This document shows, one piece after another, positions 1,365 through 18,912 of a stretch of 20,387 bases of DNA (position 1 is its first letter; every line of letters starts with the position of its first letter). The DNA comes from a candidate division WOR-3 bacterium (GTDB lineage Bacteria; Hydrothermota; Hydrothermia; Hydrothermales; Hydrothermaceae). A program made the position numbers and the translations under genes. The notes under the pieces are model-generated. The model was not told the DNA's origin, did no database searches, and was given only the letters and a program-made list of their open reading frames with translations. The stretch lies in contig JBDRZD010000033.1 of NCBI GenBank assembly GCA_039803745.1, positions 1-20,387 on the forward strand, in the 5' to 3' direction.

Positions 1365-2389
1365 ATATTATTTTTTAATTTATTAAGAAATTCTTTTATA
1401 GTATATAAAATATCTTCTGCGAATAAAAAAATTATTCTAAATGGGGGTGATAAAATGGGAAAAAGAAAAGATAAAAAAGCAATTTTCGGAAAGAAATTTG
1501 ATTCCGTTTCAGCATTTGCTTTTCTTTTTAAATCACGATAAATTACATCAAGATAGGGACCTGCTTTCTCTGCCCCAAGTTTTTTTATAAAAGTAATTGC
1601 AAGTTCATCTTCCGGAGAAAGAATCCTCTTTTTTCTTTTTTCAATAAATTCTTTAAACTCACTTATTTTACCTTTTTCAAACCACATACCATAACAGACA
1701 GGACAAATAAATATGCCTTCAATTTTTAAAACTGGATTTATGAATTTCCTCATATCCTTTTTACATACAGGGCATTTTGGTATATTATGGTGAATCTGAA
1801 AGTTAATCACTTCTTTTTCATCTATATTTAATACATTTTCTTTATCAACTGAATATGCTCCTCCTTTTGAAAAAAATAAACCGCCACAATATTCGCATCT
1901 TTTAACATCCAGATTTTTCCCAAAATCATTTTTTATTTCGTAATTTTTTAAAGTATTTCCATCAAAAGGACAATTGAGTTCTGCTGGAGAATATGCTTCA
2001 AATCCTTTGTGTATTTCATCTAAAAAAGTAATTGCAATTAAAGATTTTACTCCTCCATATTCAGGTGATAATTTTTCCATTTCTGGAAGCGCCAATTTTA
2101 TTGTTTTACCCGGAATAAAAATGCCTTTGCATTTTTCACAGTGAAAGGCAGATGAATTAAGAGGAAATAATTTATGAACAAATTCAGTCATATCTGAGTC
2201 ACAATTGGGACAGGGAATTTTATATTCTTTTTCCTCTTTTTGAGTAATCAAGTCAATTTTTGTAATTCTTTCAAATTCATCTTTATCAAAAAATATTCCG
2301 CCACACTCAGGACAATGATCTATTTCTATACCTATGATTTTTGTTTTTAATAATTCTCCATGACCCCACGGACATTTTCTTTTTTTCAT
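1361..2389 (-). CDS. Protein with four tandem zf-TFIIB-like zinc ribbons and a C-terminal hydrophobic segment
   Basis: Four units of CPxx...CxxCxG(I/L/M)(F/W): CPWGH..CPECGGIFFD, CPNC..CEKCKGIFI, CPFD..CEYCGGLFF, CPVC..CPVCYGMWFE. ATGA overlaps with both neighbours. Confidence 0.8.
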   Translation of the reverse strand: MKKRKCPWGHGELLKTKIIGIEIDHCPECGGIFFDKDEFERITKIDLITQKEEKEYKIPCPNCDSDMTEFVHKLFPLNSSAFHCEKCKGIFIPGKTIKLALPEMEKLSPEYGGVKSLIAITFLDEIHKGFEAYSPAELNCPFDGNTLKNYEIKNDFGKNLDVKRCEYCGGLFFSKGGAYSVDKENVLNIDEKEVINFQIHHNIPKCPVCKKDMRKFINPVLKIEGIFICPVCYGMWFEKGKISEFKEFIEKRKKRILSPEDELAITFIKKLGAEKAGPYLDVIYRDLKRKANAETESNFFPKIAFLSFLFPILSPPFRIIFLFAEDILYTIKEFLNKLKNNI

Positions 2390-2838
2390 TTCAAAAATTT
2401 CAATAAAAGTTCAACAGCACTTTCTGGATCATCCACCTCAATACCTATATCAATTTTAAAAGGCACTTTAATTTTTATTAATGGTTTATTAATTTTGCCA
2501 CAAATTGCAAGTTCCATAAGTGTTCCATATTCACCATCAATAGCAATAACTCCATCAGAAGATTTAACTATTATTATATTTCTTGCCATACCCATTCCTG
2601 TAACTATAGGAATTTTTACCCATTTATTACTTTCTTCTTTTGATTCACCCGGCAATATACCTATTGTAAGACCACCTGCCTCATAGGCGCCTCTGCATGC
2701 AGCCTCCATAACGCCACTTAAACCACCACATATCAATATATTACCACTTTTAGCAATATTTTTACCAACTTCATAGGCTATATCATAGATTTCTTTTGAA
2801 CAAACTGAGCCACCTATTACACCGATTAATTTTTGCAT
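2386..2838 (-). CDS. TIGR00725 family protein (SLOG/LOG-like nucleotide-binding Rossmannoid fold)
   Basis: Motifs IGVIGG, ICGGLSGVMEAACRGA, GGLTIGILPG, TGMGMARN and DGEYGTLMELA are typical of this family. Confidence 0.9.
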   Translation of the reverse strand: MQKLIGVIGGSVCSKEIYDIAYEVGKNIAKSGNILICGGLSGVMEAACRGAYEAGGLTIGILPGESKEESNKWVKIPIVTGMGMARNIIIVKSSDGVIAIDGEYGTLMELAICGKINKPLIKIKVPFKIDIGIEVDDPESAVELLLKFLK

Positions 2839-2844
2839 TTTTTA

Positions 2845-2850
2845 ATTATA
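2845..2850 (-). promoter_or_regulatory. -10 box (TATAAT) 6 nt upstream of the TIGR00725 ATG; probable leaderless promoter
   Basis: Plus-strand ATTATA at 2845-2850, ATG at 2838, no Shine-Dalgarno in between. Confidence 0.6.
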
Positions 2851-2860
2851 ATCTAAAAAA

Positions 2861-3151
2861 TTATATCATTTCTATTTTTTTTATTCTATCAATTCTAAAA
2901 CTTCTCCATTCATTTCTTAAATAACAATAGGCAATTATTTTGCCATTTTCTATCTTTTCAGGTTTTATAACCCTTCTTGTCTCTTTACCCTTTGAATCAA
3001 CATATTCAATTTCTAATTTCTTTGATGATTCTATTGCTTTTTTTATTTTTTCAAAAGGATTTAAAACTTCTTCATTTGTTTTTTTAATTCTTTTTTTCTT
3101 TCTTAAAATAACTTTTGAAAGGTCTTCACCAAAAAGTATTATTTTAAGCAT
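2861..3151 (-). CDS. Stand-alone WYL domain protein (96 aa from the ATG at 3151)
   Basis: IKKAIESSKKLEIEYVDSKGKETRRVIKPEKI...AYCYLRNEWRSFRIDRI is a recognisable WYL domain. The ATG at 3151 follows AAGGTG and overlaps the vWA gene stop (ATGCTTAA), so it is preferred over the TTG at 3172. Confidence 0.88.
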   Translation of the reverse strand: MLKIILFGEDLSKVILRKKKRIKKTNEEVLNPFEKIKKAIESSKKLEIEYVDSKGKETRRVIKPEKIENGKIIAYCYLRNEWRSFRIDRIKKIEMI

Positions 3152-4694
3152 ATACACCTTTTGTGTATTCAATTATTTTCTCAGGTATATCTTCAGAATC
3201 TTCAATTAAAAAACAGGGTATTTTATCTTTTAAATCTTCATAAACAGAACTTTCCTTTTCTATCTGAAACAAAACAAATTTATAATTCTTAACAATTTCC
3301 ATAAATCTTTTTCTTATTTTATTCCAGTTATGAATTTCACCATCAGTGATGAAAATTATAAAAATATTATTCTTTAAGTTCTCTTCTATTTTTTTAATAT
3401 CAATATATGTATTACCCCTTTGTGGTGAAAAGAGCAATTTTTTTATTTTATCAATTTCATTATAAGAAAGCCATCCTGTTGAAATTGTTTTAGAACTGAA
3501 GTTTATTAAAGAATATTTAATATAGGGTGCTATCCTTTTTATTTTTAAAAAGTTGAAAATTCCATAAATCCCAATTAAAAGATTATGATATTTCTTGCCC
3601 CATGGCAAAAAACTATCACTCCCATAAGTCATGGAATGGGAAGAATCAACAAGAAACATTAAATCAGGGAAAAAATCTTTAACACCTTTTTTAATAAATA
3701 TTCCTTTTTTAAATGGTTCAACATAAAAATTTATATTATTTTTAAATGGTGAATCTTTATCAAAGAAGGGTCTTTTAAAGTTTATTTCATAAAAGGAATG
3801 ATTCTTTATATCAAAATTCTCTTTTCCATAACTTATAAAGGGAATTTCAAAACCACTTCTTTCATCTGTTTCAATTTCAACATAAGGTGAAATAATTGTA
3901 TAATAAATATCATAAAATGAAGAAGATGAGATAAAAGAGGGTTTTTCTCTCCTTTTTGCCTTCAATTTAATATATTTTTCAATACTTTCATTTGAAGACA
4001 TCTCTTCTTCAAAAAATGATAAAACTGATAAAGGAATCCTCTCGCCTCTGAAATATTTTTTTGAAAAAATTATAAATTCATTAAATAGAAATTTCCAATT
4101 AGCATGATTTTTTAAATATCCTATCCTTTCTTCTTTATTTTCAGGTATATTCCATTTTTTAAATAATTTTTTTACATCCTCAATTATTTCCTCATATTTT
4201 TCTTTATTATTTTGAAAATCTTTAAAGATTTCTTTTATCCTTTTTTCTTCATTCCATAAATACAAATTCAATATTACAAAGAATGAATAAAAAGGTGAAA
4301 AGGAATGAGAAGTTTGTAATTTGAAAAATTCTAATTGCCCCTCATAAGGTGGATTTTTAAACTTATTATAGGTATTCACTATTAAGTCCTCAAAGGCATT
4401 TAAAATATAACCTGAATCTTCTGAATTTTTAAAATTTTTAAAGGATAAATCAAATAATTCATAATGATAAAAAATATCCATCGGACATATTTTCCAGTGC
4501 ATTATTTCATGAAGCAATATATCCTTTATAAATCCATCTTTCCATTTTATTTCATCCCCTATTTCCAAAATAATTTTCCATTTATAAACATCAATACTTG
4601 CTCTTATTTCTCTGCCTTTAATTCTTATAACTTCAATAAAGCCTCCTATAAAATCAAGATTTCTTTCAATATCCTCAAAAATTTTTTCAATCAT
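3144..4694 (-). CDS. N-terminal HExxH metallopeptidase-like domain + C-terminal vWA (MIDAS) domain protein
   Basis: HEIMH followed by NAFEDLIVN (candidate third Zn ligand Glu). vWA MIDAS elements LVDSSHSM, GNT and ITDGE. 8-nt overlap with the upstream AAA gene. Confidence 0.85.
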   Translation of the reverse strand: MIEKIFEDIERNLDFIGGFIEVIRIKGREIRASIDVYKWKIILEIGDEIKWKDGFIKDILLHEIMHWKICPMDIFYHYELFDLSFKNFKNSEDSGYILNAFEDLIVNTYNKFKNPPYEGQLEFFKLQTSHSFSPFYSFFVILNLYLWNEEKRIKEIFKDFQNNKEKYEEIIEDVKKLFKKWNIPENKEERIGYLKNHANWKFLFNEFIIFSKKYFRGERIPLSVLSFFEEEMSSNESIEKYIKLKAKRREKPSFISSSSFYDIYYTIISPYVEIETDERSGFEIPFISYGKENFDIKNHSFYEINFKRPFFDKDSPFKNNINFYVEPFKKGIFIKKGVKDFFPDLMFLVDSSHSMTYGSDSFLPWGKKYHNLLIGIYGIFNFLKIKRIAPYIKYSLINFSSKTISTGWLSYNEIDKIKKLLFSPQRGNTYIDIKKIEENLKNNIFIIFITDGEIHNWNKIRKRFMEIVKNYKFVLFQIEKESSVYEDLKDKIPCFLIEDSEDIPEKIIEYTKGVYA

Positions 4695-5982
4695 TTTTTA
4701 AAAAATAATGAAGGAGTGGATTTTTATATTTACTCAAAATTTTTTCAATTTTCTCTTTATCCTTAATATTTAAAAGGTTTCCCTCTTCCTTTGCTATATG
4801 ATTTATTTCATAAATTATTCTTTTTATAAAATTCCAGTTTTCTTCAATCATGTCTAAATCCCCTTGGGCAAGTTTTCCTTCAAAACTTTTTAAGAATAAT
4901 TCTTTTAAAACTTCTTTTTTCTCCTCAATTTTCCTTTTAATCATTCTCCCAATTTCCATTGAAGCAAGATATGCATCACCCATATATTTTGTTTCAATTA
5001 AATAATTGTTTATAATTCCATTAAATGGGGAAAGAAAGGAAAAACTCTCAATTATATCAATATAATCAACATATTCTTTTTTTATTCCTTTAAGTTTTAA
5101 ATAAAGATTTTTTGCCTTTGAAAAGATATTTAAATTTTTTATGAATCTCATACTCGGTGGAAAAATATAACCACATCCCTCTCCAAGCCTGTGGCATCCC
5201 TCACATATTGAAGGTATGGAATTGATTGATATTCTTTTTGAATTGAGTTTATTTTTTTTACAAAAATCAAGCCCGTATCTTAAATAAAGAATGGAAATTA
5301 TTGCATCAAGTGTAAGTTTAACATTTTCAATTTCTTTATTAATTTTTTTAAATAGTTCAACATAATTCCCGTTCCTCTTTATTTCATATTTATTATTCTC
5401 AATTATTTCAATTACATCTAATGGGTCAGGATTAAAATAATCAACATTTATTATTAAAGGGAACCTGTCAATTATTGAAGAATCCATATCAAATATTCCT
5501 GAATACCTTATAATCCCCCCTTTTCTTTCATAGTTTGCAGTTGCAAAAGTGATATGGTATCCATTCCCCAAAATTATTTTTTTATTTTCAAATTCAATGT
5601 ATCCATCAAGAATATGAAAAAATTCATTCTGGATAATTTCCGGAGCCCTGTTTATTTCATCTATCATTGTAAAATTTGCATCCTTAATCTCTTTCAATTC
5701 AAACTTAAATTTATCTATATTAAATCTTTCAAAGATTTCTTTTAATTTCATATCAGGTCTTGCCCTTATATATATTCCCTTTTCATCAAAATAAATTGAG
5801 TTTATCTCATGGAGTAATACTGTTTTCCCTTCGCCTCTTTCTCCTATTAAAAGGGTATTCAATTTTCCGATAAGGGCAATCTTGATGATATCAGAAAGTG
5901 TTAAATTTTCTTTAAAATTCCTTATAACTGTGCTATTTCTATATATCTTTAAATCTTCTATTTCAAAAATTTCATTTTTCAT
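4687..5982 (-). CDS. MoxR-like AAA+ ATPase with a Cys-rich insert
   Basis: Walker A GERGEGKT, Walker B TMIDEINRA, sensor-1 FATAN, Arg finger IIDRF. The adjacent vWA partner is typical of the MoxR clade. Confidence 0.88.
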   Translation of the reverse strand: MKNEIFEIEDLKIYRNSTVIRNFKENLTLSDIIKIALIGKLNTLLIGERGEGKTVLLHEINSIYFDEKGIYIRARPDMKLKEIFERFNIDKFKFELKEIKDANFTMIDEINRAPEIIQNEFFHILDGYIEFENKKIILGNGYHITFATANYERKGGIIRYSGIFDMDSSIIDRFPLIINVDYFNPDPLDVIEIIENNKYEIKRNGNYVELFKKINKEIENVKLTLDAIISILYLRYGLDFCKKNKLNSKRISINSIPSICEGCHRLGEGCGYIFPPSMRFIKNLNIFSKAKNLYLKLKGIKKEYVDYIDIIESFSFLSPFNGIINNYLIETKYMGDAYLASMEIGRMIKRKIEEKKEVLKELFLKSFEGKLAQGDLDMIEENWNFIKRIIYEINHIAKEEGNLLNIKDKEKIEKILSKYKNPLLHYFLKND

Positions 5983-5988
5983 ATTTTA

Positions 5989-6034
5989 ATTATAGTAATC
6001 CTCAGTGACAAATTCTGTCATTTTTCTTTATAAT
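5989..6034. promoter_or_regulatory. Divergent promoter region with two TATAAT boxes and a central TGACA-N5-TGTCA inverted repeat (putative operator)
   Basis: Minus-strand TATAAT at 5989-5994 (6 nt before ATG 5982). Plus-strand TATAAT at 6029-6034 (6 nt before ATG 6041). TGACA at 6006-6010 and TGTCA at 6016-6020. Confidence 0.7.
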
Positions 6035-6040
6035 ATAAAA

Positions 6041-7012
6041 ATGAAATATACATCAAAAATTCAGAGATTTAATGAATTTATAAATTTATTAAAAAGAGGC
6101 AGATATGGATTGGAAGAATTAAAAGAATATCTTGAAATAAGTGAAAGAACAATTTTCAGGTATATAAAAGAACTTAAAAATAGAGGAATAACTGTAAATT
6201 ATGATGATTTCACAAAAAAATATTATATTGAACAAAAAGAGAATATAATTCATATTTATCCTCTTGAAATAATCTTTACTGAAAAAGAATTAAATGCCCT
6301 TTATTTTGCCTTTGATTTTTTAAAAAAGAAAAAAAATTTCCCATTAATTTCTGAACTTGAATCATTTATAAAAAAGATTGAAGAATATAAGGGGAATATT
6401 GAGTATAAGAGTATATTTGAAATTACAAGTTTTGTTTTCCCTTCTGATTTAAAGGAAAAATATGATTTAATAAAAGAAGCAATAAATGAAAATAGATATA
6501 TTGAATTTTATTATTATGGTTCAAAGGAAAAAAAGGAGATAAAAAGGAAGGTTGCTCCATGGTTTTTAATACATGCCTTTGGTAAATGGTATTTAATAGG
6601 TTATTGCACTTTAAGGGATGAGATGAGGACATTTGATTTAAAAAAGGTAAGGAATATTAATAAAACTGATGAACTATGTTATGATGCAATAATTGGAAAG
6701 GATTATAAAGAATTTGTAAAGGATATGTTTGGACCATGGAAAGGAGAAAAAGAAGAATGGGTGAGCATTTTTTATGACAGGGAGGTTGCAAATTATATTA
6801 AGGAAAGAAAATTTTTTCAAGATTTCAAAATTGAAGAATTTGGTGATGGTTCAATAAGATTAAAAATTAAGGTTTCTTATCCAGAAGCAGTTTTATATTA
6901 TCTTGTTTTACCATTCCATTTTCATGCGGAAATTGAATCACCAAAATATTTAAGGAAAAGACTTATAAATTATTTAGAAAGAACATTGAATAAATATAAA
7001 AAGGAAAAATGA
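6041..7012 (+). CDS. HTH-WYL-WCX transcriptional regulator (YafY/PafBC/DriD-like)
   Basis: N-terminal wHTH (LEELKEYLEISERTIFRYIKELK), WYL domain (KRKVAPWFL..GKWYLIGYC..RTF), C-terminal WCX-like region (AEIESPKYLR). ATG 6041 is preferred to GTG 6005, which lies inside the promoter palindrome. Confidence 0.92.
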   Translation: MKYTSKIQRFNEFINLLKRGRYGLEELKEYLEISERTIFRYIKELKNRGITVNYDDFTKKYYIEQKENIIHIYPLEIIFTEKELNALYFAFDFLKKKKNFPLISELESFIKKIEEYKGNIEYKSIFEITSFVFPSDLKEKYDLIKEAINENRYIEFYYYGSKEKKEIKRKVAPWFLIHAFGKWYLIGYCTLRDEMRTFDLKKVRNINKTDELCYDAIIGKDYKEFVKDMFGPWKGEKEEWVSIFYDREVANYIKERKFFQDFKIEEFGDGSIRLKIKVSYPEAVLYYLVLPFHFHAEIESPKYLRKRLINYLERTLNKYKKEK

Positions 7013-8034
7013 ACAAAATAGTTTTATCACTTATAATAATTATTGGTTCTTTTCTTTTAGGTTTTATATTTGAAAAATTCATTTTAAGATTTTTAAAGGA
7101 AATCGCAAAAAAGACAAAATGGGAAGGTGATGAAATTATAATAAAATCCTTAGAAAAATGGATAATAATATGGTTCACATTGATAGGTATTCATATTACC
7201 CTCTTTATAATAAAAATAAAACCAGATGTTTTTAATGTCCTTCACAAGTTATTAATTTCCATTTATATTCTATCAATCACAATAGTTTTAATAAATATTG
7301 CGTCAGGCTTTTTAAAAATTTATACAGAAAAATTAAAAGAAGCCTTACCCTCTGTTTCAATTCTTGAAAATATAATAAAAATATCAATTTTAATAATTGG
7401 TCTTCTTGTTCTTTTAAACTTTCTTGGAATCTCAATAATCCCGATAATTACAGCCCTTGGAGTTGGTGGAATTGCTATTGCTCTTGCACTCCAAGATACA
7501 CTCTCAAACTTATTTGCAGGATTCCATATAATTCTTTCAAAGCATATAAGACCGGGAGACTATGTAAAACTTCAAACAGGTGAAGAAGGGTATGTTGTGG
7601 ATATTACATGGAGAAATACAACAATAAAAAGTTTATTAAATAATCTTATAGTTATACCAAATTCAAGATTGTCATCAACAATTTTTACAAATTATCATTT
7701 ACCTGAAAAAGAGATGAGTCTTATAATCCCTGTAACTGTTAGTTATGATAGTGACCTTGAAAGGGTTGAGGAAGTTACAACTTCTATTGCAAAGGAAGTT
7801 TTAAGAGAAATTTATGGTAAAGAAGATGATGAAGTTTTTATAAGATACAGTTCTTTTGGTGAATACGGTATAAATTTTAATGTAATAATTAATATAAAAG
7901 AGTTTTCCCAGCAATATTTAATAAGGCATAATTTTATCAAAAGGTTATACAAAAAATATAAAGAGGAGGGAATTGTTATCCCCTATCCTGTGAGAAAGAT
8001 TTATATTGAAGAGAAAGAAAAATTCAAAGAATAA
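7009..8034 (+). CDS. mscS: Small-conductance mechanosensitive channel (MscS family)
   Basis: N-terminal TM helices. ALGVGGIAIALALQDTLSNLFAG, IRPGDYV, GYVVDITWRNT, IPNS and GIVIPYP are MscS signatures. ATGA overlap with the WYL regulator. Confidence 0.93.
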   Translation: MNKIVLSLIIIIGSFLLGFIFEKFILRFLKEIAKKTKWEGDEIIIKSLEKWIIIWFTLIGIHITLFIIKIKPDVFNVLHKLLISIYILSITIVLINIASGFLKIYTEKLKEALPSVSILENIIKISILIIGLLVLLNFLGISIIPIITALGVGGIAIALALQDTLSNLFAGFHIILSKHIRPGDYVKLQTGEEGYVVDITWRNTTIKSLLNNLIVIPNSRLSSTIFTNYHLPEKEMSLIIPVTVSYDSDLERVEEVTTSIAKEVLREIYGKEDDEVFIRYSSFGEYGINFNVIINIKEFSQQYLIRHNFIKRLYKKYKEEGIVIPYPVRKIYIEEKEKFKE

Positions 8035-8801
8035 TTGATGCATTTATTCCAGTCTTCTTTATAAAATTTTCTTATTTTTTCAAGTTCTTTTTTTTCAGGA
8101 AAAATATTTTTATAATTTATTAAAAAGTCAGGTATATATTTTGAAAGGTATAAAATTGGGTATCTGATAGGGTAAACGATAAAATATTTTTTTAAAAATC
8201 CTCTTGGTCTTAAATCTATTCTTGATGACAATTTATAGAAAATATTTAATTCCTTTTCGCCATAGGATGAATGTCTTTTTTTGAAAGAAATCTTTGATTT
8301 ATCATAATCTGCCCCAACATATTTTGCAATTTTATCTAAAAACCTTTCCGGATTATTTTTAAGTTCATCATAGATAAGAACAAGAGGCTTTTTCTTAAAA
8401 TTCTTTTCAACAAACTTTATTTTTTCATAAAAATATAAATCATCTATTTTGAAATACCCTGTATTTTCAAAATTAAAGAGTTCACTAAATTTTATTCTTC
8501 TTCCATTTTTAATCATCCTTTTAAATTGAGAATAAAGCCATTCATCCTGTCTCCTTAAAACAAGAATGATTCCCGCATCAGGAAAATCCTCTTTAAACCA
8601 TAAAAGCATCTCCTCAAATCTTTCATCACATTCCCTTGAAACAAGAAATTTACCTTCTCCCTTTTTCTTTATAATTTCCTTTGATTTTTTAAATTTTGTC
8701 ATCGGAATATAATTTATATTCTTTAACTTTGGAAAGAAATCAAATTGAAGATATTTTGTTCCTGTTTTTCCAAGTCCTGCATGAAAATAAACTTCAAGCA
8801 T
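8001..8801 (-). CDS. Sulfotransferase-family P-loop protein
   Basis: N-terminal HAGLGKTGTKYLQ (5'-PSB-like loop), LVLRRQDEWLYSQF (3'-PB-like) and LIYDELKNNP. The 3' end overlaps mscS convergently by 34 bp. Confidence 0.75.
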   Translation of the reverse strand: MLEVYFHAGLGKTGTKYLQFDFFPKLKNINYIPMTKFKKSKEIIKKKGEGKFLVSRECDERFEEMLLWFKEDFPDAGIILVLRRQDEWLYSQFKRMIKNGRRIKFSELFNFENTGYFKIDDLYFYEKIKFVEKNFKKKPLVLIYDELKNNPERFLDKIAKYVGADYDKSKISFKKRHSSYGEKELNIFYKLSSRIDLRPRGFLKKYFIVYPIRYPILYLSKYIPDFLINYKNIFPEKKELEKIRKFYKEDWNKCINYSLNFSFSSI

Positions 8802-8833: not shown

Positions 8834-10978
8834 TTAAAATATTTTAAGTATTTTTCTGGTAATTTCTTTATCCCTTTCACCTTTTATCTTTATAAAATAT
8901 ATACCCTTTTTAAATTTTAAAGGGATCTCCTTTTTACCTTTTAAAAGGAAAAATTCCTTATATACATTTCTTCCTGTTATATCATAAATAAAAACAAACA
9001 AATTGTCTTTCTCAAGATTCAAAATTAATTTACCATTTTTATAAAAGCAATATTCATCTTTTACTTCTTTTTCACCTATATCCACAGGACTCATATAAGA
9101 AAATTTTATTGCATCTGATATAACAACCTCACCATTTGTTGAATTTGAATACAAAATTAAATAAAAAGGTGAGATTAAAGTAAAAGTATCGCAAAAAATC
9201 CAGCCAACTTCGTTTATTCCTTGAGAATATTGATTTACATAAAAATCAAAGGTGCCATTTTGAGCATAGATTCTATAATGAGCATTTTGGGTTCTATTAT
9301 ATCCCTTTCTTGCAAAAACTCTTACTTCATAAATTCCAGAAGGTAAAAATGAAAAATCATATTTAACAGAATCGTTCTGATATGTATAAGCCCATCTATA
9401 ATCGGATAAATATCCTGTATAGGATGATAAATTCCAGTTACCATAAAATTGGCAAAGTGAATCTCCATCATCTATTAAATAAAATGGAAAAATATCAATA
9501 GAATTTAAAAATCTAAATTTGATTGCATCAAAGGCAATCTTTTTCCCGGAGACATTAGAAGTATCACCAAGAGTTACGCATCCATTAATATAATTTCCCT
9601 CCTTTGGCATCGGATATATTCCAAGGCTTTTCCATTGCCCATTAAAATTACCCTGATTAACCCAGTAAGGAGTTATATTAATCAAATTATAAATTTTGTA
9701 TCTTACATAAGCATTAAATTCAGTATCTGCTGGTATATAAGCAAATATTTCATAATCCCCTGTATCGGGTAAATTGGGTGTCCATCTTGCCCAGTTTGAA
9801 ACAGGATTTGTCCATGTATATGTCCAGAAAATATGACCACCATATCCATATCCAACATTATCTTTAAACCACCAAGAAGAATAGGGTCCTCCCCTTTTAA
9901 ACCCTTTTGTAAGGTCATCAACTATTGTATCTGGATAAGGCAAATATCCAACAAGTCTCATATAATATGTCCAGTCCCAGTAAGGACCCGGGTCTGTATG
10001 TGTTGCTCCCGGAACCTCATTATGTCCTATTATATGCTGTCTATCATAAGGAACACCAAATAAATTAATCATTGACCTTGTTATATAAGCAGATTTTTTA
10101 TACATCTCATCAGTATACCATCCATTCTGTTCAATCCAACCCTCATGTTCTGTTCCAATACTTTTTGTATTATATGTCCAGTTTCCTGCATGCCATGCAA
10201 TATCCTTATGGCGAACCATCTGGGTTGAATGACCATCATATGATCTTAAAACATAATGGGCAGAAACATTAGAATTTGGATTTCTGAACCATGCAATTGT
10301 TCCTTCATATGTTCCCTGTGCAGTATGAATTATAACATATTGAATTGGATATGTATATGGTCTATTTGAAACTGTAAAGTTTGAAGAATCTGCATAGATA
10401 AATTGATTAATACTATCAAGTTCTGGTGTCTCAAAAATTTCTTCCTTGATCTCTATTTCCTTCCCTTCAACTTCAATTATTCCCTCTTTAAATCCCTCTT
10501 TATAAATTTCAAAAAACCTCTTTAATTTAAATTCATTTCCTTTAAAATATTTTAAAAGTGCCTTTTCTAAATTATTGTTTTCTTCATCCAAATATTTTTT
10601 CAAAAGATATGCTGAAAACCTAATATTGTTCTCCGCGTCACCAGCAATAATTTTCAATTTACCCTTATAATGAATCTTTGTCTTTCCTATATCATGAAGT
10701 TCACATTCAATTTCAAAATCAGGAACATTTTTAAGTTTAATTTCATCAATAAAGATAGTATCTTCTTCAGAAATTCCCATTATACCATACTTTCTATCAA
10801 TTGACGGACATTTTATATGATGAAATCTTGTTTCCATATAACCTATGATTTTCAAAATATTTGCATCAATACCGAATTCCTTTGCAGAGTTTTCCATTAT
10901 TTCTTTATATTTTTCAAGTTCCTTAATTCTTTCAGAAGGAGGAGCAAGGATTATAAATATTATAAAAAATTTTGTCAT
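8834..10978 (-). CDS. Secreted N-acetylmuramoyl-L-alanine amidase (Amidase_2) with N-terminal lysozyme/SLT-like domain, two golvesin-like beta domains and a T9SS-type CTD
   Basis: Amidase_2 motifs IIHTAQG, SAHY, AWHAG, IGTEHEG, IIGHNEV and HTDPG. N-terminal AKEFGID..IGYMETRF..YGIMG..NNIRFSAYLL. Two repeats of the form I(V/I)DD...DAIKF. CTD motifs IYDITGR, GIYFIKI and RKILK. SD AGGAGG. Confidence 0.88.
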   Translation of the reverse strand: MTKFFIIFIILAPPSERIKELEKYKEIMENSAKEFGIDANILKIIGYMETRFHHIKCPSIDRKYGIMGISEEDTIFIDEIKLKNVPDFEIECELHDIGKTKIHYKGKLKIIAGDAENNIRFSAYLLKKYLDEENNNLEKALLKYFKGNEFKLKRFFEIYKEGFKEGIIEVEGKEIEIKEEIFETPELDSINQFIYADSSNFTVSNRPYTYPIQYVIIHTAQGTYEGTIAWFRNPNSNVSAHYVLRSYDGHSTQMVRHKDIAWHAGNWTYNTKSIGTEHEGWIEQNGWYTDEMYKKSAYITRSMINLFGVPYDRQHIIGHNEVPGATHTDPGPYWDWTYYMRLVGYLPYPDTIVDDLTKGFKRGGPYSSWWFKDNVGYGYGGHIFWTYTWTNPVSNWARWTPNLPDTGDYEIFAYIPADTEFNAYVRYKIYNLINITPYWVNQGNFNGQWKSLGIYPMPKEGNYINGCVTLGDTSNVSGKKIAFDAIKFRFLNSIDIFPFYLIDDGDSLCQFYGNWNLSSYTGYLSDYRWAYTYQNDSVKYDFSFLPSGIYEVRVFARKGYNRTQNAHYRIYAQNGTFDFYVNQYSQGINEVGWIFCDTFTLISPFYLILYSNSTNGEVVISDAIKFSYMSPVDIGEKEVKDEYCFYKNGKLILNLEKDNLFVFIYDITGRNVYKEFFLLKGKKEIPLKFKKGIYFIKIKGERDKEITRKILKIF

Positions 10979-11613: not shown

Positions 11614-14600
11614 TTATTTCAATTTTAAAAATTTTTCCCTTTCTTTAAAAACTGTTTTACCATATTTTTCTGCTGAAAATTCAAAAATGTAAACTCCTTT
11701 TTGGATTTTACCAAGTTTTTCAATCTCTATTTCATAAAATCCAGCTGAAAGATTTTTTAATTTTTCTTCATAGATAATCCTTCCCATAACATCATAAATT
11801 TTTATCTTCCCGGTGCATTCATAAGGGATTGAAATTTTTATAATATTATTCAAAATTTTAAAAGAAAAAACTGAAGGAATTTCGCTTTCTTCAACTTTTA
11901 CTGCACTTATTCTGAATGAATCACTTACCTCATAAATATTTAAATTTGAAGAACTTGAAAGTTTAATCCTTGCATTATTTGAAGAAATTCCCTGAGGGAT
12001 TGTCCATTCATAATTCCCCTGATTATTCTGATTTAAAACTATTGTATTCCATGTTGTTCCACCATCAAGAGAATAATATAGATTTATCTGGGATAAAAAC
12101 CCCTTCATATTCCATGTGATAAAATATTTTCTCTGGGAAAACCATAAGTCTCCAAGAAGAGGAGAAGTAATCTCTATAAATGGTGAAGAAATGATTAATG
12201 TATCACTTAATCCATAAACAAGAGTATTTGAAGAATTTTCTATTTTAATCATTGCTGTATTGGATACAACCTCTGGAACTGTCCATTCATATTTACCTGT
12301 ATTCTGGACATTTGAAGCAATTATCAGCCAGTTCTGCCCACCATCAAGAGAATACCACAAGTTTGCATTTGAAAAATTACCTATTGTCCTCCATGTAATT
12401 GTATATTTTCTTCCATCTAAAAGGGTATCAGAGGCGTAAGGTGAAGTGATTATAATTTGTTGCGGTAAAATTGAAAACCTTTCGCTTATGTCAAAAACCT
12501 GTGGATTTTGAGAACTTGTTATTTTTATAAAACAATTATTGGAGATTGCAGTTGGAACATTCCATTCATAATACCCATTATTATTTACATTTGTTTGAAT
12601 AACATTCCATGTGTTTCCGCCATCAACAGAATATTCAAGATTTACGCTTTGAATTGTCCCTGTCCATTCCCATGTTATATAATATTTTCTTCCTGAAATA
12701 AGTTGAACATTCAAAAAAGGATATATAACATTTATTGTCTGTAAAGGTATTCTGAAAGTATCGCTTATTCCATAAACATTTAAATTTTGAACATTTGAAA
12801 CCTTTACAAGGCAGAAATCTCCCGGTGTATTCGGTATTGTCCATTCATAATTTCCTGAATTTTGTGTGCTTGAAGTTATAACCTGCCATGAGGAGCCACC
12901 ATCTATAGAATATTCAATCTTTGCATTCTGGAAAACTCCTGTATTCCACCATGCTATAAAATATTTTCTTCCTATTATCCATTCCTCATCTTTTTCCGGT
13001 GAATATACAAATATCTTTTGTGGAACAATATTAAAGGTATCGCTTATATCAAAAACATTTGTATTTGCCGAATTTGAAATCTTTATCAAAGCCATGTTAG
13101 AAGGTGTATTCGGGATTGTCCATTCATAAACCTGGTTATTCTGGACATTTAAAGCAACTGTATTCCATGTAACCCCTCCATCAACTGAATATTCAATATT
13201 AACACTTGGGAAAGCACCTGTATAATCCCATGTTAGAAAATATTTTCTTCCAATAATAAAACTATCTCCTGAAACAGGGCTTGTTATGAATATCTCCTGT
13301 GGTATGATTTGAAAAGTATCGCTAATATCCACAACATTTGGATTTTCATAATTTCTTATTCTTACAAGGCAATTATTAGAAGGAGTATTTGGGATAGTCC
13401 ATTCATATTCTCCATCGTTTTGTGTAGGGGATACAATATTAACCCATGTTGCACCACCATCATAGGAATAATCTATAACTGCGTTAGCAAAACTACCATA
13501 GGTATTCCACAATATAAAATATTTCTTTCCAACAACCCATCTTTTTGTGGAATCCGGTGAAACAATCCTTATTTTCTGTAAATGAATTGAAAAACTATCG
13601 CTTATATCCTGTGCAGTGCCATTAACATCTTTAACCATTATTTTACAATTATCAGTTACATAATTGGGCACAGTCCATTCATAACTTTTCTGGGTGTTAG
13701 AGACTGTTGCAATATAAGTCCATGAACCATTATTTATTGAATAATAAATTTCTACCTGGTTTGGACTTGCGAATTGCTGACTGTGCCATGTGATTATACA
13801 TTTATTGCCTATTAAGAATGTATCACCAGAGAGTGGAGACAAAATTTTTAGAGGGATACCAATAAGTGAAGTTGTATCCTGTATTGTAAATGAATCACTT
13901 AATCCTAATCCAGCAGCCTCAACTTTTACAATAGCATTATTTGATAAAAAGGTGTCAACTGCCCAGGTATACCATCCTGTATTTGGGGTATTATTAACAA
14001 TTGTTTTCCAAGTAATTCCGCCATCTATTGAATACTCAATCTCTGCACTTGGTACATCAACTATATAAGTCCAGTAAATTGCATGTTTCCTTTTTATATA
14101 ATAAATATCCTGAAATTTCGGTCTCTTTACCCTTAATGTATCTGGAATTATCACAGGAAAACCATCACTTATGTCAAAATTATCAATATCAGATGTATTT
14201 ACAACTTTTATTAAACATGCACCAGGAAGTCTCCAGTGATAACTTCCATCATTAGCTGTGCTTGTTGTTATTGTTTGCCAGTTTGTTCCATCAAAAGAAT
14301 ATTGAAGCATAACATTCTGAATATTTCCGTTTGTTTCCCATATTATCTCCATATCTTCACCCAAAAAGATTGGCTCACCTCCATTTGGATATATTACTTT
14401 TATAGTAGGTCTTACTATACGAAAAACACCGCTTAATGCATAGGAATTAGGGTCATTAACATTTGTTATTTTAATTCCAGCAGAATCTGAAATATAATAA
14501 GGCATAACAAAATCAAAACTACCATCATTTGGAGTATTATTTGTTATTGTCCACCACTCTACTCCTGACTGTGTTTTATACCAGAGTTCAAGTTTTACTC

Positions 14601-15846
14601 CTGCTGCACTTCCTCGCCAGTCCCAGTGTATTGCATATCTTTCACCTGCTATAAGGGCTTCATCTGCTCTTGGTCTTTTAATTACAAATTCAGTTCTTTT
14701 GATTACAAAATCCTGCGAACTTATATCAAATACATTTGGGTCATCAACATTTGTAATCTTAATCCTTACATTTTGAGAAGGTGTTCCTGGGACCGTCCAT
14801 ATATAACTTCCATCATTTTGAGTTGAACTTGTTATTAAAATCCATGTATTGCCTCCATCAACAGAATATTCAATCTTAACATTTGCAATACTTCCTGTCC
14901 AATTCCAGTGAATAGGGGCATTATCTCCTGGATAAAAAACTTCTCCACCGTCAGGAGTTTTAATTTCAATAGAAGATGATAGGATGGTGAAATTATTATT
15001 GCTTATATCATAAATACTTGGATTTGAAACATCGGATATTTTAATCAAGCAATTTGTTGAAGGAGACGAAGGTATTACCCAGTAATGTGAGCCATCATTT
15101 TGAGTAGATGCAACAATTAAATTCCATGTATTTCCACCATCAACTGAATACTCAATTTTCACATTCTGGATGCTTCCCTCCCAGTCCCATAGAATTGGAT
15201 AAATTTTTCCCATAACAAAATTTTCTCCGCCATTTGGATATAATACTGTAAGTGAATTTGTGGCTATTGTAAAATCGTTATCACTTATATCAGAAGAAGA
15301 AGGGTCATCAAGATTTGTTATTCTTACTCTACATAAATTTGAGGGAGTATTTGGAACTGTCCATGCAAAATCCCCATCATTTGAAGTGGAATTTGTTATA
15401 GTTTGCCATGTTGTCCCGTCTATTGTATATTCAATTTTAACATTTGAAAAATTTCCTGTCCAATCCCATTCTATTGGATAATTATCACCTGCTCTTAAAG
15501 CCTCTCCACCATTCGGCTTCTTAACCCTGATTACCGGTCTTATAATAGAGAAACTTCCATCACTTATATCATATTCAGAAGGATTATTCACATTTGATAT
15601 TTTAACAAAACAATTTGAGGAAACAGTATTAGGGATTGCCCATAGATAACTTCCATCATTTGGTGTTGATGAAGCAATTAAAATCCAGTTTTGTCCACCA
15701 TCAACTGAATATTCAATCTTTACAGAACTTATATTCCCTTCCCAGTTCCAGTGAATCGCCCTTTTTTCTCCAACAGTCCATTCCTCCCCACCATTTGGAT
15801 GGGTGATATATATAGCATTTACAATTAAAAAAATTATATTTATCAC
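11614..15846 (-). CDS. Large secreted/surface protein with 14 tandem ~93-aa Ig-like (Kre9/Knh1-like 'PNGGE') repeats and a T9SS-type CTD
   Basis: Repeat consensus I..PNGGE....G....I.W...G....V.IEYS.DGG.TW..I.....N.G.Y.W.IP...S..C.IKI........DISD..F.I. CTD motifs IYDVMGR, GVYIF and EKFLKLK. GTG start with SD AGGAGG. Confidence 0.88.
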   Translation of the reverse strand: MINIIFLIVNAIYITHPNGGEEWTVGEKRAIHWNWEGNISSVKIEYSVDGGQNWILIASSTPNDGSYLWAIPNTVSSNCFVKISNVNNPSEYDISDGSFSIIRPVIRVKKPNGGEALRAGDNYPIEWDWTGNFSNVKIEYTIDGTTWQTITNSTSNDGDFAWTVPNTPSNLCRVRITNLDDPSSSDISDNDFTIATNSLTVLYPNGGENFVMGKIYPILWDWEGSIQNVKIEYSVDGGNTWNLIVASTQNDGSHYWVIPSSPSTNCLIKISDVSNPSIYDISNNNFTILSSSIEIKTPDGGEVFYPGDNAPIHWNWTGSIANVKIEYSVDGGNTWILITSSTQNDGSYIWTVPGTPSQNVRIKITNVDDPNVFDISSQDFVIKRTEFVIKRPRADEALIAGERYAIHWDWRGSAAGVKLELWYKTQSGVEWWTITNNTPNDGSFDFVMPYYISDSAGIKITNVNDPNSYALSGVFRIVRPTIKVIYPNGGEPIFLGEDMEIIWETNGNIQNVMLQYSFDGTNWQTITTSTANDGSYHWRLPGACLIKVVNTSDIDNFDISDGFPVIIPDTLRVKRPKFQDIYYIKRKHAIYWTYIVDVPSAEIEYSIDGGITWKTIVNNTPNTGWYTWAVDTFLSNNAIVKVEAAGLGLSDSFTIQDTTSLIGIPLKILSPLSGDTFLIGNKCIITWHSQQFASPNQVEIYYSINNGSWTYIATVSNTQKSYEWTVPNYVTDNCKIMVKDVNGTAQDISDSFSIHLQKIRIVSPDSTKRWVVGKKYFILWNTYGSFANAVIDYSYDGGATWVNIVSPTQNDGEYEWTIPNTPSNNCLVRIRNYENPNVVDISDTFQIIPQEIFITSPVSGDSFIIGRKYFLTWDYTGAFPSVNIEYSVDGGVTWNTVALNVQNNQVYEWTIPNTPSNMALIKISNSANTNVFDISDTFNIVPQKIFVYSPEKDEEWIIGRKYFIAWWNTGVFQNAKIEYSIDGGSSWQVITSSTQNSGNYEWTIPNTPGDFCLVKVSNVQNLNVYGISDTFRIPLQTINVIYPFLNVQLISGRKYYITWEWTGTIQSVNLEYSVDGGNTWNVIQTNVNNNGYYEWNVPTAISNNCFIKITSSQNPQVFDISERFSILPQQIIITSPYASDTLLDGRKYTITWRTIGNFSNANLWYSLDGGQNWLIIASNVQNTGKYEWTVPEVVSNTAMIKIENSSNTLVYGLSDTLIISSPFIEITSPLLGDLWFSQRKYFITWNMKGFLSQINLYYSLDGGTTWNTIVLNQNNQGNYEWTIPQGISSNNARIKLSSSSNLNIYEVSDSFRISAVKVEESEIPSVFSFKILNNIIKISIPYECTGKIKIYDVMGRIIYEEKLKNLSAGFYEIEIEKLGKIQKGVYIFEFSAEKYGKTVFKEREKFLKLK
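11905..15813 (-). repeat. 14 degenerate in-frame tandem repeats of ~280 bp encoding Ig-like domains
   Basis: Counted by eye from the translation. Recurrent plus-strand DNA such as CCACCATCAAC..AATATTCAAT and GTCCATTCATA. Confidence 0.85.
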
Positions 15847-16858: not shown

Positions 16859-17761
16859 TTAACCCCCTCCATACATATACATATTTATAAATAATCCATT
16901 CTTTATTTCTTCCACAATCCTTTCAATTCTTTTCTCTTGATTCTTTTCTATCTCCAAAAATTTCAGCAGTCCTCTCCAATCCATTTTAAAAACTCTTTCT
17001 AAAAAATCCAGCAGCTCATTTTTGGTCATCAATTCTCTTTTTAATTGATTTGCCTGAAAAGCAGCATTAATAACTTTGCCAAAATCCATCACACCTTTAT
17101 TTTTTTCCACAAATTCTTTTAAACATTTAAAAATATCTTCAAGTCCAAAAATAAATTCTGTGGTCAATTCCTCGTCATTTAAGGGTATCATTTTTATAAT
17201 TCCATTTTTATATTCAAAACCCCTCAAAATAATTTCTAATTCAAATTTCACATAATAATTACCTGAATCCGCCAATTTAAATCTGTTAGGATAAAAAAAA
17301 CGGTCCGTTTCCCGACCACTAATCTTAAGAATTTTCACAACTAAATTGTGCTTCCTCCACTCGCTTGGACAGAATGAATCTGGCAGAATAATTAAGAATC
17401 TCATTTTTTTAAAACACAACTCCTTTATAATTCTTAAATTTGTTAAAATCCACCATTCATAATTTAGGAGAGGGAAAATGTATTCTTCATTTTTAAACCT
17501 TTCAGTTTTATATTCATCACCCAGATCGCATATATAAGTTTCTTCTTTTAAACTATTGTATAAAATCAAATAAGGTAAGAAATTTCTTCGCAACAGGTCT
17601 ATTAAGTTTCTGACTCTCCTTCCTTCTTCTCCTGATATTACAATCCATAACCCATAATTTTTCACTAAAACCATATCACCTCTTATCTCCTCTCTATAAT
17701 TTATTCTATTACTTTCAAAAATTTCTTTTACTGCTTCAATATATTTTGACCTTTCTCCCAT
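16859..17761 (-). CDS. Hypothetical protein (300 aa), third gene of the AAA/vWA operon
   Basis: Long ORF with SD AAGGAG overlapping the vWA stop. No family recognised with confidence. Confidence 0.8.
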   Translation of the reverse strand: MGERSKYIEAVKEIFESNRINYREEIRGDMVLVKNYGLWIVISGEEGRRVRNLIDLLRRNFLPYLILYNSLKEETYICDLGDEYKTERFKNEEYIFPLLNYEWWILTNLRIIKELCFKKMRFLIILPDSFCPSEWRKHNLVVKILKISGRETDRFFYPNRFKLADSGNYYVKFELEIILRGFEYKNGIIKMIPLNDEELTTEFIFGLEDIFKCLKEFVEKNKGVMDFGKVINAAFQANQLKRELMTKNELLDFLERVFKMDWRGLLKFLEIEKNQEKRIERIVEEIKNGLFINMYMYGGG

Positions 17762-17775
17762 CTAAGTATTCTCCT

Positions 17776-18897
17776 TTAAAGACCATTAAATTCTTTCTCC
17801 TTTTTATATCTTACAGTTATTCCAAAGGGAGCTTCCTTTTTTTCCTTTGTAATCCATAAAACCGGAAATGGCGGGGCTTTCTCAGGAAAATTTCCCATTA
17901 AATCTGTGAAGAATACAAGAGGAAGTATGATTCTTTTCTCTTCAAGATATTTAAATACAGGTCTAAAATCTGTTCCACCTCTACCAGTTATTTCAATAAC
18001 TTCCGGCAATTTATCAGGATATTTTATTTCTTCTACTTTTTGAATTTTAACATCATTCTGAACTAAATAAATATGATAAAAATTAAAAGAATTTAAAATA
18101 CCGTTAATTTCGCTGAAGAAATCCTTTAAATCGCTACTTGTAATTGAACCTGAAGTATCCACTGCCACAACTAACTTCAAAATCTTTTGCCTTCTCGTTG
18201 GATAAATAATATCATAAGCAAGATATCTTCTGTTAGGTCTTGTCCAATCTGTCTTTATCCTTACATTCTGGATTAAAAATTTAGCCAGCATAATCCTCCA
18301 GTTAATTTTTGGCTCCCTTAATTCATCAATTAACTCCTCCAACCATTCCGGGAAATCACCTTTTAATTTTGCTTCATTCCAAGCATCAATCAAAATTCTT
18401 CTATATTTTTCCTCTGTTTCTTGTGCATTTCTACTATCACAAAAATAATGATCATCAAATCCTTGGGGGTAAAAATATGCAAAATTTTTAAGCAAAAGCC
18501 TATAATACTCCTCTGCTGACAGACATTCTTTAAAACCAAACCTTTCAGGAAATAATGAATTTTCTTTGAGTCTATCAATTTTAAATCCCATCTTCAAAAG
18601 CATAGAATTAATCGCGAGGTCAGTTGCTATATTCCATAAAAATCTTTCTCTTTGACCAAGCCTTGTAAAATGACATAGAGCAATATGCAAAATTTCATGA
18701 AGAATAACAAAAACTCTATCAGATTCACTTAGTTCTTTAAACCAGTTCGGATTTACCTTAAAGCGTCCGTCCCCATAAACACAAGCAGTGGGTATATTCA
18801 TTTCTTCTTCAAAAACAGTTTCTAATAATAACTTTCTGAAAAAAGGGTGTTCCATCACCACTTTTACAATTGCCCTTTCAAATTCCTTTGTTCTCAT
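17776..18897 (-). CDS. DUF2201-type protein: N-terminal putative metallopeptidase (HExxH) + C-terminal vWA-like domain
   Basis: HPFF..L, PTACV, VILHEILHIALCH..R, WNIATDLAIN, LSAEEYY, WTRPNRR, VAVDTSGSI, GRGGTDFRPVF and FFTDLMG match the DUF2201_N/DUF2201 pattern. Confidence 0.9.
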   Translation of the reverse strand: MRTKEFERAIVKVVMEHPFFRKLLLETVFEEEMNIPTACVYGDGRFKVNPNWFKELSESDRVFVILHEILHIALCHFTRLGQRERFLWNIATDLAINSMLLKMGFKIDRLKENSLFPERFGFKECLSAEEYYRLLLKNFAYFYPQGFDDHYFCDSRNAQETEEKYRRILIDAWNEAKLKGDFPEWLEELIDELREPKINWRIMLAKFLIQNVRIKTDWTRPNRRYLAYDIIYPTRRQKILKLVVAVDTSGSITSSDLKDFFSEINGILNSFNFYHIYLVQNDVKIQKVEEIKYPDKLPEVIEITGRGGTDFRPVFKYLEEKRIILPLVFFTDLMGNFPEKAPPFPVLWITKEKKEAPFGITVRYKKEKEFNGL

Positions 18898-18912
18898 TTG
18901 TTTTTCGTTAAT

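Follow-up and report, generated by a model that had tools for sequence, protein, structure and literature searches.

Organization of the four-gene module

The stretch of DNA described here, called the window, comprises positions 1 to 20,387 of contig JBDRZD010000033.1 from a candidate division WOR-3 bacterium (GenBank assembly GCA_039803745.1). By combining a listing of its open reading frames (ORFs) with direct reading of this AT-rich sequence (G+C 23-35%), we delimited a module of four genes (Table 1). Three of these share the minus strand and encode, in order, a MoxR/Midasin-type AAA+ ATPase, a 516-amino-acid (aa) protein joining a zincin-like HExxH domain to a von Willebrand factor A (vWA) domain, and a stand-alone WYL protein of 96 aa, here called WYL96. 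The fourth, encoding a transcription regulator with helix-turn-helix (HTH), WYL and WCX domains, is divergent from them, with 58 bp between its ATG and the start of the ATPase gene. The ATPase gene overlaps the 516-aa gene by 8 nt, and the WYL96 gene overlaps the stop of the 516-aa gene to the same extent (ATGCTTAA). A longer TTG start for WYL96 at 3172 was judged less likely than the ATG at 3151; for the regulator a GTG at 6005 is a possible alternative start, but it sits on the conserved candidate operator discussed below. An earlier note on this DNA, made from the sequence alone, had given the coordinates, the overlaps and the motifs HEIMH and DSSHS, all of them correctly, and its domain calls (AAA+, HExxH/vWA, stand-alone WYL and HTH-WYL) are borne out by the Pfam, motif and structure matches reported here.

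Table 1. Module genes, control elements and neighboring features of the window.
Feature	Position	Strand	Basis or remark
HTH-WYL-WCX transcription regulator	6041..7012	+	323 aa from ATG at 6041
Divergent control region, 58 bp	5983..6040	.	palindrome 6006-6020 and TATAAT-like box 6029-6034
Promoter-like hexamer pair	6005-6034	+	score 11/12
Promoter-like hexamer pair	6011-5983	-	score 10/12
MoxR/Midasin-type AAA+ ATPase, 431 aa	4687..5982	-	Pfam AAA_5, Walker motifs
Zincin-like HExxH domain and vWA domain, 516 aa	3144..4694	-	motifs and predicted structures
Stand-alone WYL protein WYL96, 96 aa	2861..3151	-	Pfam WYL; ATG at 3151, stop at 2861
Laterally shared block, 5.65 kb	2381..8032	.	four-gene module with SLOG and MscS neighbors; blastn
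SLOG gene	2386-2838		neighbor in shared block, not module part
MscS gene	7009-8034		neighbor in shared block, not module part
Zinc-ribbon protein, 342 aa	1361-2389	-	Pfam
Secreted protein pair	8834-10978 and 11614-15846	-	type IX secretion C-terminal sorting domains
AAA+ gene, DUF2201 gene and 300-aa ORF	16859-19953	-	DUF2201 pair at 17776-19953

Conservation, selection and lateral transfer

We searched 41 relatives and 272 genomes of the phylum for the module, the window's own genome being designated G000. The 516-aa protein was found in six of the 41 relatives, and its family profile in six of the 272 phylum genomes, all of one order. The four genes stand together in all six carriers, one copy being decayed, so that the synteny of the WYL genes with the AAA-vWA pair, on which the earlier note had staked its proposal, holds in every carrier found. 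Five further genomes have the regulator diverging from the ATPase, zincin-vWA and WYL96 genes in the same order and orientation, at 44-98% protein identity, and this recurrence means that the arrangement is not a product of chance. According to ORF coordinates, the overlapping stop/start junctions are preserved in the four other intact loci. In the decayed copy, that of G009 (L014:6900-9700), numerous stop codons interrupt the ATPase and zincin-vWA genes and the reading frames of WYL96, SLOG and the regulator remain open, which indicates that the module is dispensable. It is seemingly absent from G002, but there the contig ends within MscS at 99% identity and the absence is probably an assembly gap.

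Ratios of nonsynonymous to synonymous substitution (dN/dS) of 0.10-0.38 were obtained across all four genes in unsaturated comparisons, i.e. 0.10-0.33 for the ATPase, 0.12-0.38 for the zincin-vWA protein and 0.13-0.34 for the regulator, and indicate that purifying selection acts on each of the four. The exception to this range, a value of 0.78 for WYL96 against the near-identical copy in G007, is based on very few changes.

The similarity of the module does not follow that of the genomes. G007, which belongs to another family, shares the block with G000 at 96.8% identity (blastn), compared with 72% in the rpoB region, while G001, of the same genus as G000, shows 68.5% in the module and 83% in rpoB; for G010 and G008 the module values are 82% and 66%, respectively, against 72% in rpoB for both. 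The block shared with G007 has sharp edges, with no similarity outside it by blastn. The tree of the module is therefore at odds with that of the genomes, which argues for recent lateral transfer, and these comparisons indicate that the module is an accessory, laterally moving set in hot-spring bacteria. The block also occurs in hot-spring metagenomes of several studies, and RNA-library contigs of one study (P8) touch every module gene at 90-99% identity. A joint in a DNA contig that skips 2400-8751 was considered as an empty site and not counted, one of its sides being only 21 letters long. An Rfam scan at gathering thresholds gave 0 matches, as did a tRNA scan, and no phage, integrase, transposase or tRNA features were seen within or beside the block. 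Two queries against a viral contig collection likewise retrieved no relative.

The AAA+ ATPase

The ATPase matched Pfam AAA_5 at 33.5 bits (cut-off 22), and its family profile found Midasin and the MoxR structure 2r44 as best matches in the PDB, placing it in the MoxR class of AAA+ proteins that typifies MoxR-vWA ternary conflict systems. Its Walker A (GERGEGKT) and Walker B (DEIN) motifs are both invariant in 24 sequences. The bpMoxR score, 19.5 bits, lies under the cut-off of 27; clade-b homologues of the ATPase matched AAA_3 at 29.6 bits, the cut-off there also being 27. A C-terminal extension of about 250 aa includes a cluster of cysteines at approximately residues 240-275, in which a nearly invariant C241 is followed by a CxxC...C...C pattern. 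The cluster, which may be a zinc-binding insert, is kept in the bacterial clades and in some archaeal members and is gone in others.

The putative zincin-vWA protein

The 516-aa protein had no Pfam match above cut-off and none among the NCBIfam, PADLOC or PHROG models, and a Pfam scan of 40 members of its family left 39 without any domain and one with Big_7 only. A word-indexed search retrieved only 11 relatives; an exhaustive search with phmmer found 364 cluster representatives at E <= 0.001, with 220 at <= 1e-10 and 35 at <= 1e-30. The zincin domain covers approximately residues 1-270 and the vWA domain approximately 340-516, the latter with a complete metal ion-dependent adhesion site (MIDAS). 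In an alignment of 41 family members, H62, E63 and H66 of the HEIMH motif (residues 62-66) are invariant or nearly so, together with C70, P71, N99 and D103, as are the MIDAS residues D350-x-S352-x-S354, T429 and D451. When the motifs of the N-terminal domain were taken from 42 sequences, H62, E63, H66, C70, P71 and D103 were invariant and E102 nearly so.

An AlphaFold model of the whole protein (predicted local distance difference test, pLDDT, 87) has a C-terminal vWA fold, for which the best structure match was 4fx5, with a Z of 17.3 and a root-mean-square deviation (rmsd) of 2.4 over 165 residues. The same fold also matched the NorQ-NorD VWA complex 9qh8 (Z 14.6, rmsd 8.4) and the MIDAS domains of Rea1/MDN1 (Z 13.4-13.5). 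The N-terminal domain modeled alone reached a pLDDT of 89, and 10 of the 11 chains that matched it with Z >= 5 were zinc peptidases or putative ones, e.g. ZMPSTE24 (Z 7.5), Ste24 (7.4), BepA (6.5) and minigluzincins (6.0), all of them below the caution line of Z 8. Foldseek gave nothing at E <= 0.001 for this domain in the PDB, where the sequence profile of the family found weak vWA matches only (E >= 0.009). The assignment as a putative zincin is accordingly one of motif and fold jointly, and on that footing, i.e. by motif and modest scores as far as the zincin part is concerned, the protein combines a MIDAS-bearing vWA domain with a putative peptidase in the manner of MoxR-vWA ternary systems. 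The DUF2201 models PF13203 and PF09967 had no match in it at E <= 0.01, and with the DUF2201 protein encoded elsewhere in the window it shares short patches only (BLASTP E 0.006-0.03). Prediction of a complex between the zincin-vWA protein and WYL96 returned 'no answer' with a score of 0.00 in two runs without controls, and weighs neither way.

The WYL proteins and the control region

In the regulator, HTH_11 (26.0 bits), WYL (64.1 bits) and WCX (32.7 bits) all exceeded their Pfam cut-offs, and its best solved relative is PafBC (6sj9, E 2e-9). It adjoins the module in all six loci. WYL96, with 47.1 bits to Pfam WYL, is built from a conserved N-terminal FG motif and a Lys-rich linker followed by the WYL barrel; six orthologues share F7, G8 and the WYL core without variation. 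Among the 41 relatives, full-length WYL96 was found only in the six module-bearing genomes, always beside the vWA gene, the other matches of the search being ordinary WYL regulators of 270-530 aa. From PADLOC only generic WYL models matched, and they matched both WYL proteins.

Between the divergent genes lies a palindrome, TGACA-N5-TGTCA, whose core, together with the CTTTATAAT box that follows it, is invariant in six loci with coding DNA of only 66-97% identity. On either strand a promoter-like hexamer pair (Table 1) takes the left half-site as its -35 element; such matches are common in the AT-rich DNA of the window, with 65 found and 52 expected. The palindrome is a plausible candidate for the operator of the WYL regulator. 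It occurs once in the 1.67-Mb assembly, where composition alone predicts about 1.5 copies, and since this is its single occurrence the regulator looks dedicated to its own locus rather than to a DNA-damage regulon of the PafBC type.

Distant relatives of the ATPase-vWA core

An archaeal-biased genome scan yielded 37 loci (L023-L059), all archaeal: 30 carry DPANN-type names, five are labeled Methanosarcinales or Methanosarcinaceae and two are unclassified. The ATPase-vWA core was present in every one of the 37, with the homologous ATPase upstream in the longer loci, and the archaeal zincin/vWA gene is flanked by genes of 200-290 aa without Pfam domains. A reverse transcriptase (RT) gene lies at 23 of these loci and at 9 of 66 metagenome loci, many of whose contigs are short. 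At L034, L039 and L043 each of the two flanking genes has at its 3' end a repeat of 72-77 nt, another copy of which lies next to the RT, and in these three loci, the ones measured, adenines of the RT-proximal copy account for 87 of the 93 mismatches. Such adenine-specific mismatches are the signature of diversity-generating retroelements (DGRs), and the resulting cassettes run in the order ATPase, target gene, zincin/vWA, target gene, template repeat and RT (L034:5111-10956, L043:5056-10838, L039:5099-10938). None of the 103 loci (37 genome and 66 metagenome) contained a relative of WYL96 or of the HTH-WYL regulator; the window has no RT, and no RVT_1 match was found in its 93%-complete assembly.

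A third clade combines a Mut7-C (PIN-like) RNase, the ATPase, a vWA protein without the zincin domain and a ThiS-like protein of 92 aa. It is represented by two mutually similar metagenome loci (L060:3509-6812 and L087:5484-8704), which count as one observation; their ATPases are about 40% identical to that of the window, both loci adjoin an H+-pyrophosphatase gene, and a protein from this clade is labeled Aerophobetes. The archaeal and third-clade loci together indicate that the ATPase-vWA core is old and that its companions have been swapped.

Two further connections were tried and rejected. The archaeal flanking proteins appeared as paralogues of the vWA protein in a single-linkage cluster, but a direct BLASTP comparison gave no real similarity (E 0.014 over 80 residues) and the cluster proved to be an artefact of overlapping ORF calls. 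To see whether WYL96 and the archaeal DGR targets have an FG-type docking motif in common at their N-termini, a hidden Markov model of 56 archaeal N-termini was used, for which 15,340 candidate starts in G000 were searched and 13,793 N-termini scored; WYL96 ranked 711 of 13,793, at 3.1 bits.

Neighboring genes

The SLOG and MscS genes travel in the shared block and were both considered as additional components. SLOG was rejected, as a native SLOG-MFS operon, not accompanied by the module, is present elsewhere in G007 and two of the five other loci lack SLOG; the SLOG copy in the G007 cassette is moreover frameshifted and split over two frames. MscS was rejected as well, being absent from two of the five other loci and undeterminable in one.

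Next to SLOG in the window lies a gene whose 342-aa product has a hydrophobic tail and, according to Pfam, two or more TFIIB-type zinc ribbons, with additional CxxC pairs in its sequence. The gene sits between SLOG and MFS and overlaps them by 4 nt. SLOG and MFS adjoin each other in G007, and one RNA-library contig joins 1356 to 2382, skipping the gene. The adjacency in G007 and this joint indicate that the zinc-ribbon gene is an insertion or variable.

The closeness to defense genes that the earlier note had looked to is seen at one of the five other loci, namely in G007 (L010:1129-4851), where the cassette directly adjoins the remains of a type I restriction-modification system, in the form of methylase, specificity and HsdR C-terminal fragments; none were recognized at the other four. 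About 3.5 kb past the other end of the same cassette is a Cache-HAMP adenylate/guanylate cyclase that matches Pycsar cyclase models. In G001 (L012:1-3732), the gene immediately downstream of WYL96, on its strand, encodes a second MoxR-type ATPase of 454 aa. It matches AAA_5 and AAA_3, and bpMoxR barely above cut-off. Two ORFs without a family match, of 349 and 447 aa, come next, and the locus may be another MoxR-centered system.

Elsewhere in the window, a second AAA+ gene (346 aa) is paired with a DUF2201_N/DUF2201 metallopeptidase-vWA gene, the 373-aa product of which scores 116.7 and 85.8 bits (PF13203 and PF09967), and a 300-aa ORF without a family follows. This pair is of phage type, with matches to phrog_1297 at 1e-88 and phrog_1314 at 1e-82, and was found in 6 of the 41 relatives, confined to the same taxonomic order as the four-gene module. 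The secreted pair in Table 1, which is unrelated to the module, consists of two large proteins with type IX secretion C-terminal sorting domains, namely an Amidase_2 and Golvesin_C protein and a 1410-aa protein with several domains (F5/8-type C / BNR / Big_7).

Interpretation of the module

The reading that we favor, with a confidence falling a little short of even, is that the module constitutes a locally regulated sensor-ATPase-protease with a role in conflict or stress. The HTH-WYL-WCX regulator would bind the single palindrome, which overlaps the -35-like boxes of both divergent promoters, and would silence both its own gene and the three-gene operon for as long as its WYL domain is free of ligand, the ligand probably being nucleic-acid-like. 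The operon would then yield WYL96 along with the MoxR-type ATPase and the zincin-vWA protein, the latter two with intact Walker motifs and with intact HExxH...E and MIDAS motifs, respectively. The vWA/MIDAS domain would couple the zincin to the ATPase, as in other MoxR pairs, while WYL96 would be the third, ligand-binding component that gates the ATP-driven remodeling and thereby switches on the zincin, which would cleave some target. WYL96 is read as a binder or sensor mainly because the archaeal relatives fill the same slot with hypervariable DGR target proteins, and the presence of the core inside archaeal hypermutation cassettes likewise suggests a sensor-driven protease switch. Gating by the regulator, ligand binding by WYL96, control of the zincin through the vWA domain and a proteolytic output in conflict or stress could each well be real, although for this set of roles too we would stop just below an even chance. 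What speaks for them is the architecture with its intact active-site motifs, the strict linkage of the genes, the candidate operator, the purifying selection, the accessory behavior and the constancy of the core amid changing partners, together with the published precedent of conflict systems made of MoxR, a vWA-peptidase and a sensor, DGR-diversified sensors among them (PMC7159879, PMC10907252, PMC12839542).

Several observations weigh against this reading. The module contains no recognized toxin or nuclease effector, leaving the zincin as the sole candidate output, and the structural scores behind the zincin call are modest (Z <= 7.5). Recognized defense genes were found beside the module at only one of the five other loci. 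In PADLOC-DB v2.0 the AAA+ and zincin-vWA proteins have no match and the combination no system model. The scan that retrieved the archaeal loci used a motif from distant members of the family (a 13-sequence alignment) and is no census, and as no statistical match links the N-termini, the argument from a shared slot is positional only. Transcription of the module has but a weak hint in its favor, i.e. the RNA-library contigs, in which DNA carry-over is possible. Lastly, MoxR-vWA pairs also serve purely housekeeping chaperone roles.

These housekeeping roles lead to a rather unlikely, though serious, alternative, in which the module is a client-specific chaperone or maturation system whose zincin trims the client and whose WYL proteins only time production. 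Such a system would be akin to NorQ-NorD, CbbQ-CbbO, RavA-ViaA or the jumbo-phage pair. The alignment of the vWA model with the NorQ-NorD VWA complex and the MIDAS domains of Rea1 and MDN1 is in line with it, as is the position of clade-b relatives among housekeeping-looking genes; known chaperone pairs, however, leave no place for a co-translated, ligand-binding WYL protein, and the genes downstream of the module differ in every lineage, so no conserved candidate client gene stands beside it. Its patchiness, recent lateral transfer and decayed copy also suit an accessory function better than a core one. Evidence from phages bears both on this alternative and on the very improbable one that the module is a remnant of a mobile element or virus, i.e. 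a captured pair for phage morphogenesis or takeover without cellular function. The best full-length structural matches of the 516-aa protein in a viral library are phage 'CobT-like/VWFA' proteins; the two-protein architecture of the core is described, for jumbo phages, as a chaperone-cochaperone pair (Iyer 2021, PMC7824862). Phage proteins of this overall architecture thus exist, a second and clearly phage-type pair is present in the window itself (phrog_1297 and phrog_1314), and the module moves laterally. Neither alternative finds a relative in the viral contig collection (two queries), the vWA protein has no PHROG match, and a remnant would hardly be expected to lack phage, integrase, transposase and tRNA features in and beside its block, or to show purifying selection on four genes in several lineages along with a regulator of its own and a conserved operator.

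PafBC and DriD respond to single-stranded DNA (ssDNA), and with PafBC as the closest solved relative of the regulator, the module might instead serve proteolysis under DNA damage or nucleic-acid stress. Sensing of ssDNA by the WYL domains would induce and activate an ATP-dependent zincin, which would remove DNA-bound proteins (as Wss1/SPRTN-Cdc48 does) or cleave a repressor (as IrrE/PprI or CapP does). Faint echoes of such enzymes were obtained for the N-terminal domain, i.e. SPRTN (6mdx, Z 4.5), PprI with ssDNA (8sln, Z 4.0) and CapP (7t5t, Foldseek E 0.76), but these scores are within the stated noise range of the tool. With the operator occurring just once in the assembly, nothing points to a damage regulon; the module has no linked repair genes, and 35 of the 41 relatives do without it, which would be unexpected for a repair function. 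Both this mechanism and either of its two outputs we regard as improbable.

Beyond the sensor-ATPase-protease reading of the module itself, the ATPase and zincin/vWA protein could be the conserved engine of a wider class, so far undescribed, of 'receptor-coupled protease switches' with an interchangeable ligand-binding third component, a generalization that we consider doubtful, if worth pursuing. The hot-spring carriers of the module would use a WYL protein in this position, DPANN and other archaea their DGR-hypermutated proteins, and the third clade a ThiS-like ubiquitin-like protein with a PIN-like RNase, an allocation of roles that is again possible rather than probable. If it held, the orphan DGR targets of DPANN would be intracellular sensors wired to an ATP-dependent protease, and WYL96 would be their fixed-specificity counterpart, detecting invader- or stress-derived nucleic acid. 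The location of the core in archaeal DGR cassettes also supplies a testable idea, not met in the DGR papers searched, of what the orphan hypervariable DPANN proteins feed into.

MoxR-vWA-peptidase systems have so far been computational predictions with almost no biochemistry. The module is compact, consisting of three small proteins and a regulator, has intact active-site motifs and encodes thermophile-type proteins that should lend themselves to structural work. It therefore offers a tractable model of the gating of a AAA+/vWA-coupled protease by a ligand-binding component. With it, the range of WYL proteins, which takes in transcription factors and CRISPR accessories, would grow to include a likely component of an ATPase-protease machine.

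Comparison with known systems

Conflict systems that combine MoxR, a vWA effector and a third component have been defined, some of them with DGR-diversified domains (Kaur 2020, PMC7159879); most of the peptidases fused there are inactive ones of the trypsin or caspase kind, a metallopeptidase being called rare. The corresponding parts of other sources read DGR targets as sensors and state that the RT clade of CPR (candidate phyla radiation) and DPANN is unlinked to conflict domains (Dore 2024, PMC10907252), restate the three-component template in a 2026 survey of BREX (PMC12839542), and propose that a MoxR and metallopeptidase-vWA pair of jumbo phages is a chaperone-cochaperone in virion assembly (Iyer 2021, PMC7824862). 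Neither a WYL third component nor archaeal ATPase-zincin-vWA genes are mentioned in those passages, nor in the DGR papers searched by term (PMC4372165, PMC5006420, PMC5758913 and bioRxiv 2020.04.01.020958). The statement of the earlier note that it did not recognize the four-gene architecture as a named system agrees with this literature and with PADLOC-DB v2.0, neither of which gave any.

Among chaperone systems, NorQ-NorD, CbbQ-CbbO, RavA-ViaA, CoxD-CoxE and CobS-CobT resemble the module in pairing a MoxR-type ATPase with a MIDAS-bearing vWA partner. Unlike them, it is without a linked client enzyme gene, has a zincin-like domain and is accessory, mobile and WYL-linked. DUF2201 and jumbo-phage pairs (PMC7824862) have an identical two-protein architecture, in which the gene of a MoxR-like ATPase precedes that of a protein uniting HExxH and vWA domains, but the 516-aa protein matches neither DUF2201 model and the known pairs have no WYL partners. 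As for the regulator, it shares with PafBC, DriD, BrxR and CapW the HTH, WYL and WCX layout and the divergence from its presumed controlled genes across a palindromic site. It differs in that its presumed target genes are new for the class and in that the operon they form includes a gene for another WYL protein, one without an HTH domain.

Another close likeness is to the MoxR-vWA ternary conflict systems, which share with the module a MoxR-type AAA+ protein, a vWA/MIDAS domain fused to a peptidase domain (a putative one in the module), a third component read as a sensor, and mobility; DGRs diversifying binding proteins are shared as well, but only in the module's distant relatives. In the module, by contrast, a WYL protein of 96 aa takes the third place, and among the module and flanking proteins Pfam gave no match to the types described for that place (VMAP, iSTAND, beta-propeller and FtsH). 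Its peptidase would be an N-terminal zincin-like domain with intact motifs, differing from those described in the parts of the ternary-system literature considered; a divergent WYL transcription factor is present; and the host is a small-genome hot-spring bacterium rather than a multicellular one. The earlier note had proposed a candidate 'new system', and of this the WYL variant itself stands as new, while the design of MoxR, vWA-peptidase and third component had already been published. Because that theme has been described, the module is a new variant and not a new kind: judged by its sequence features, it is a WYL-bearing form of the MoxR-vWA-peptidase theme that lies outside any described subfamily.

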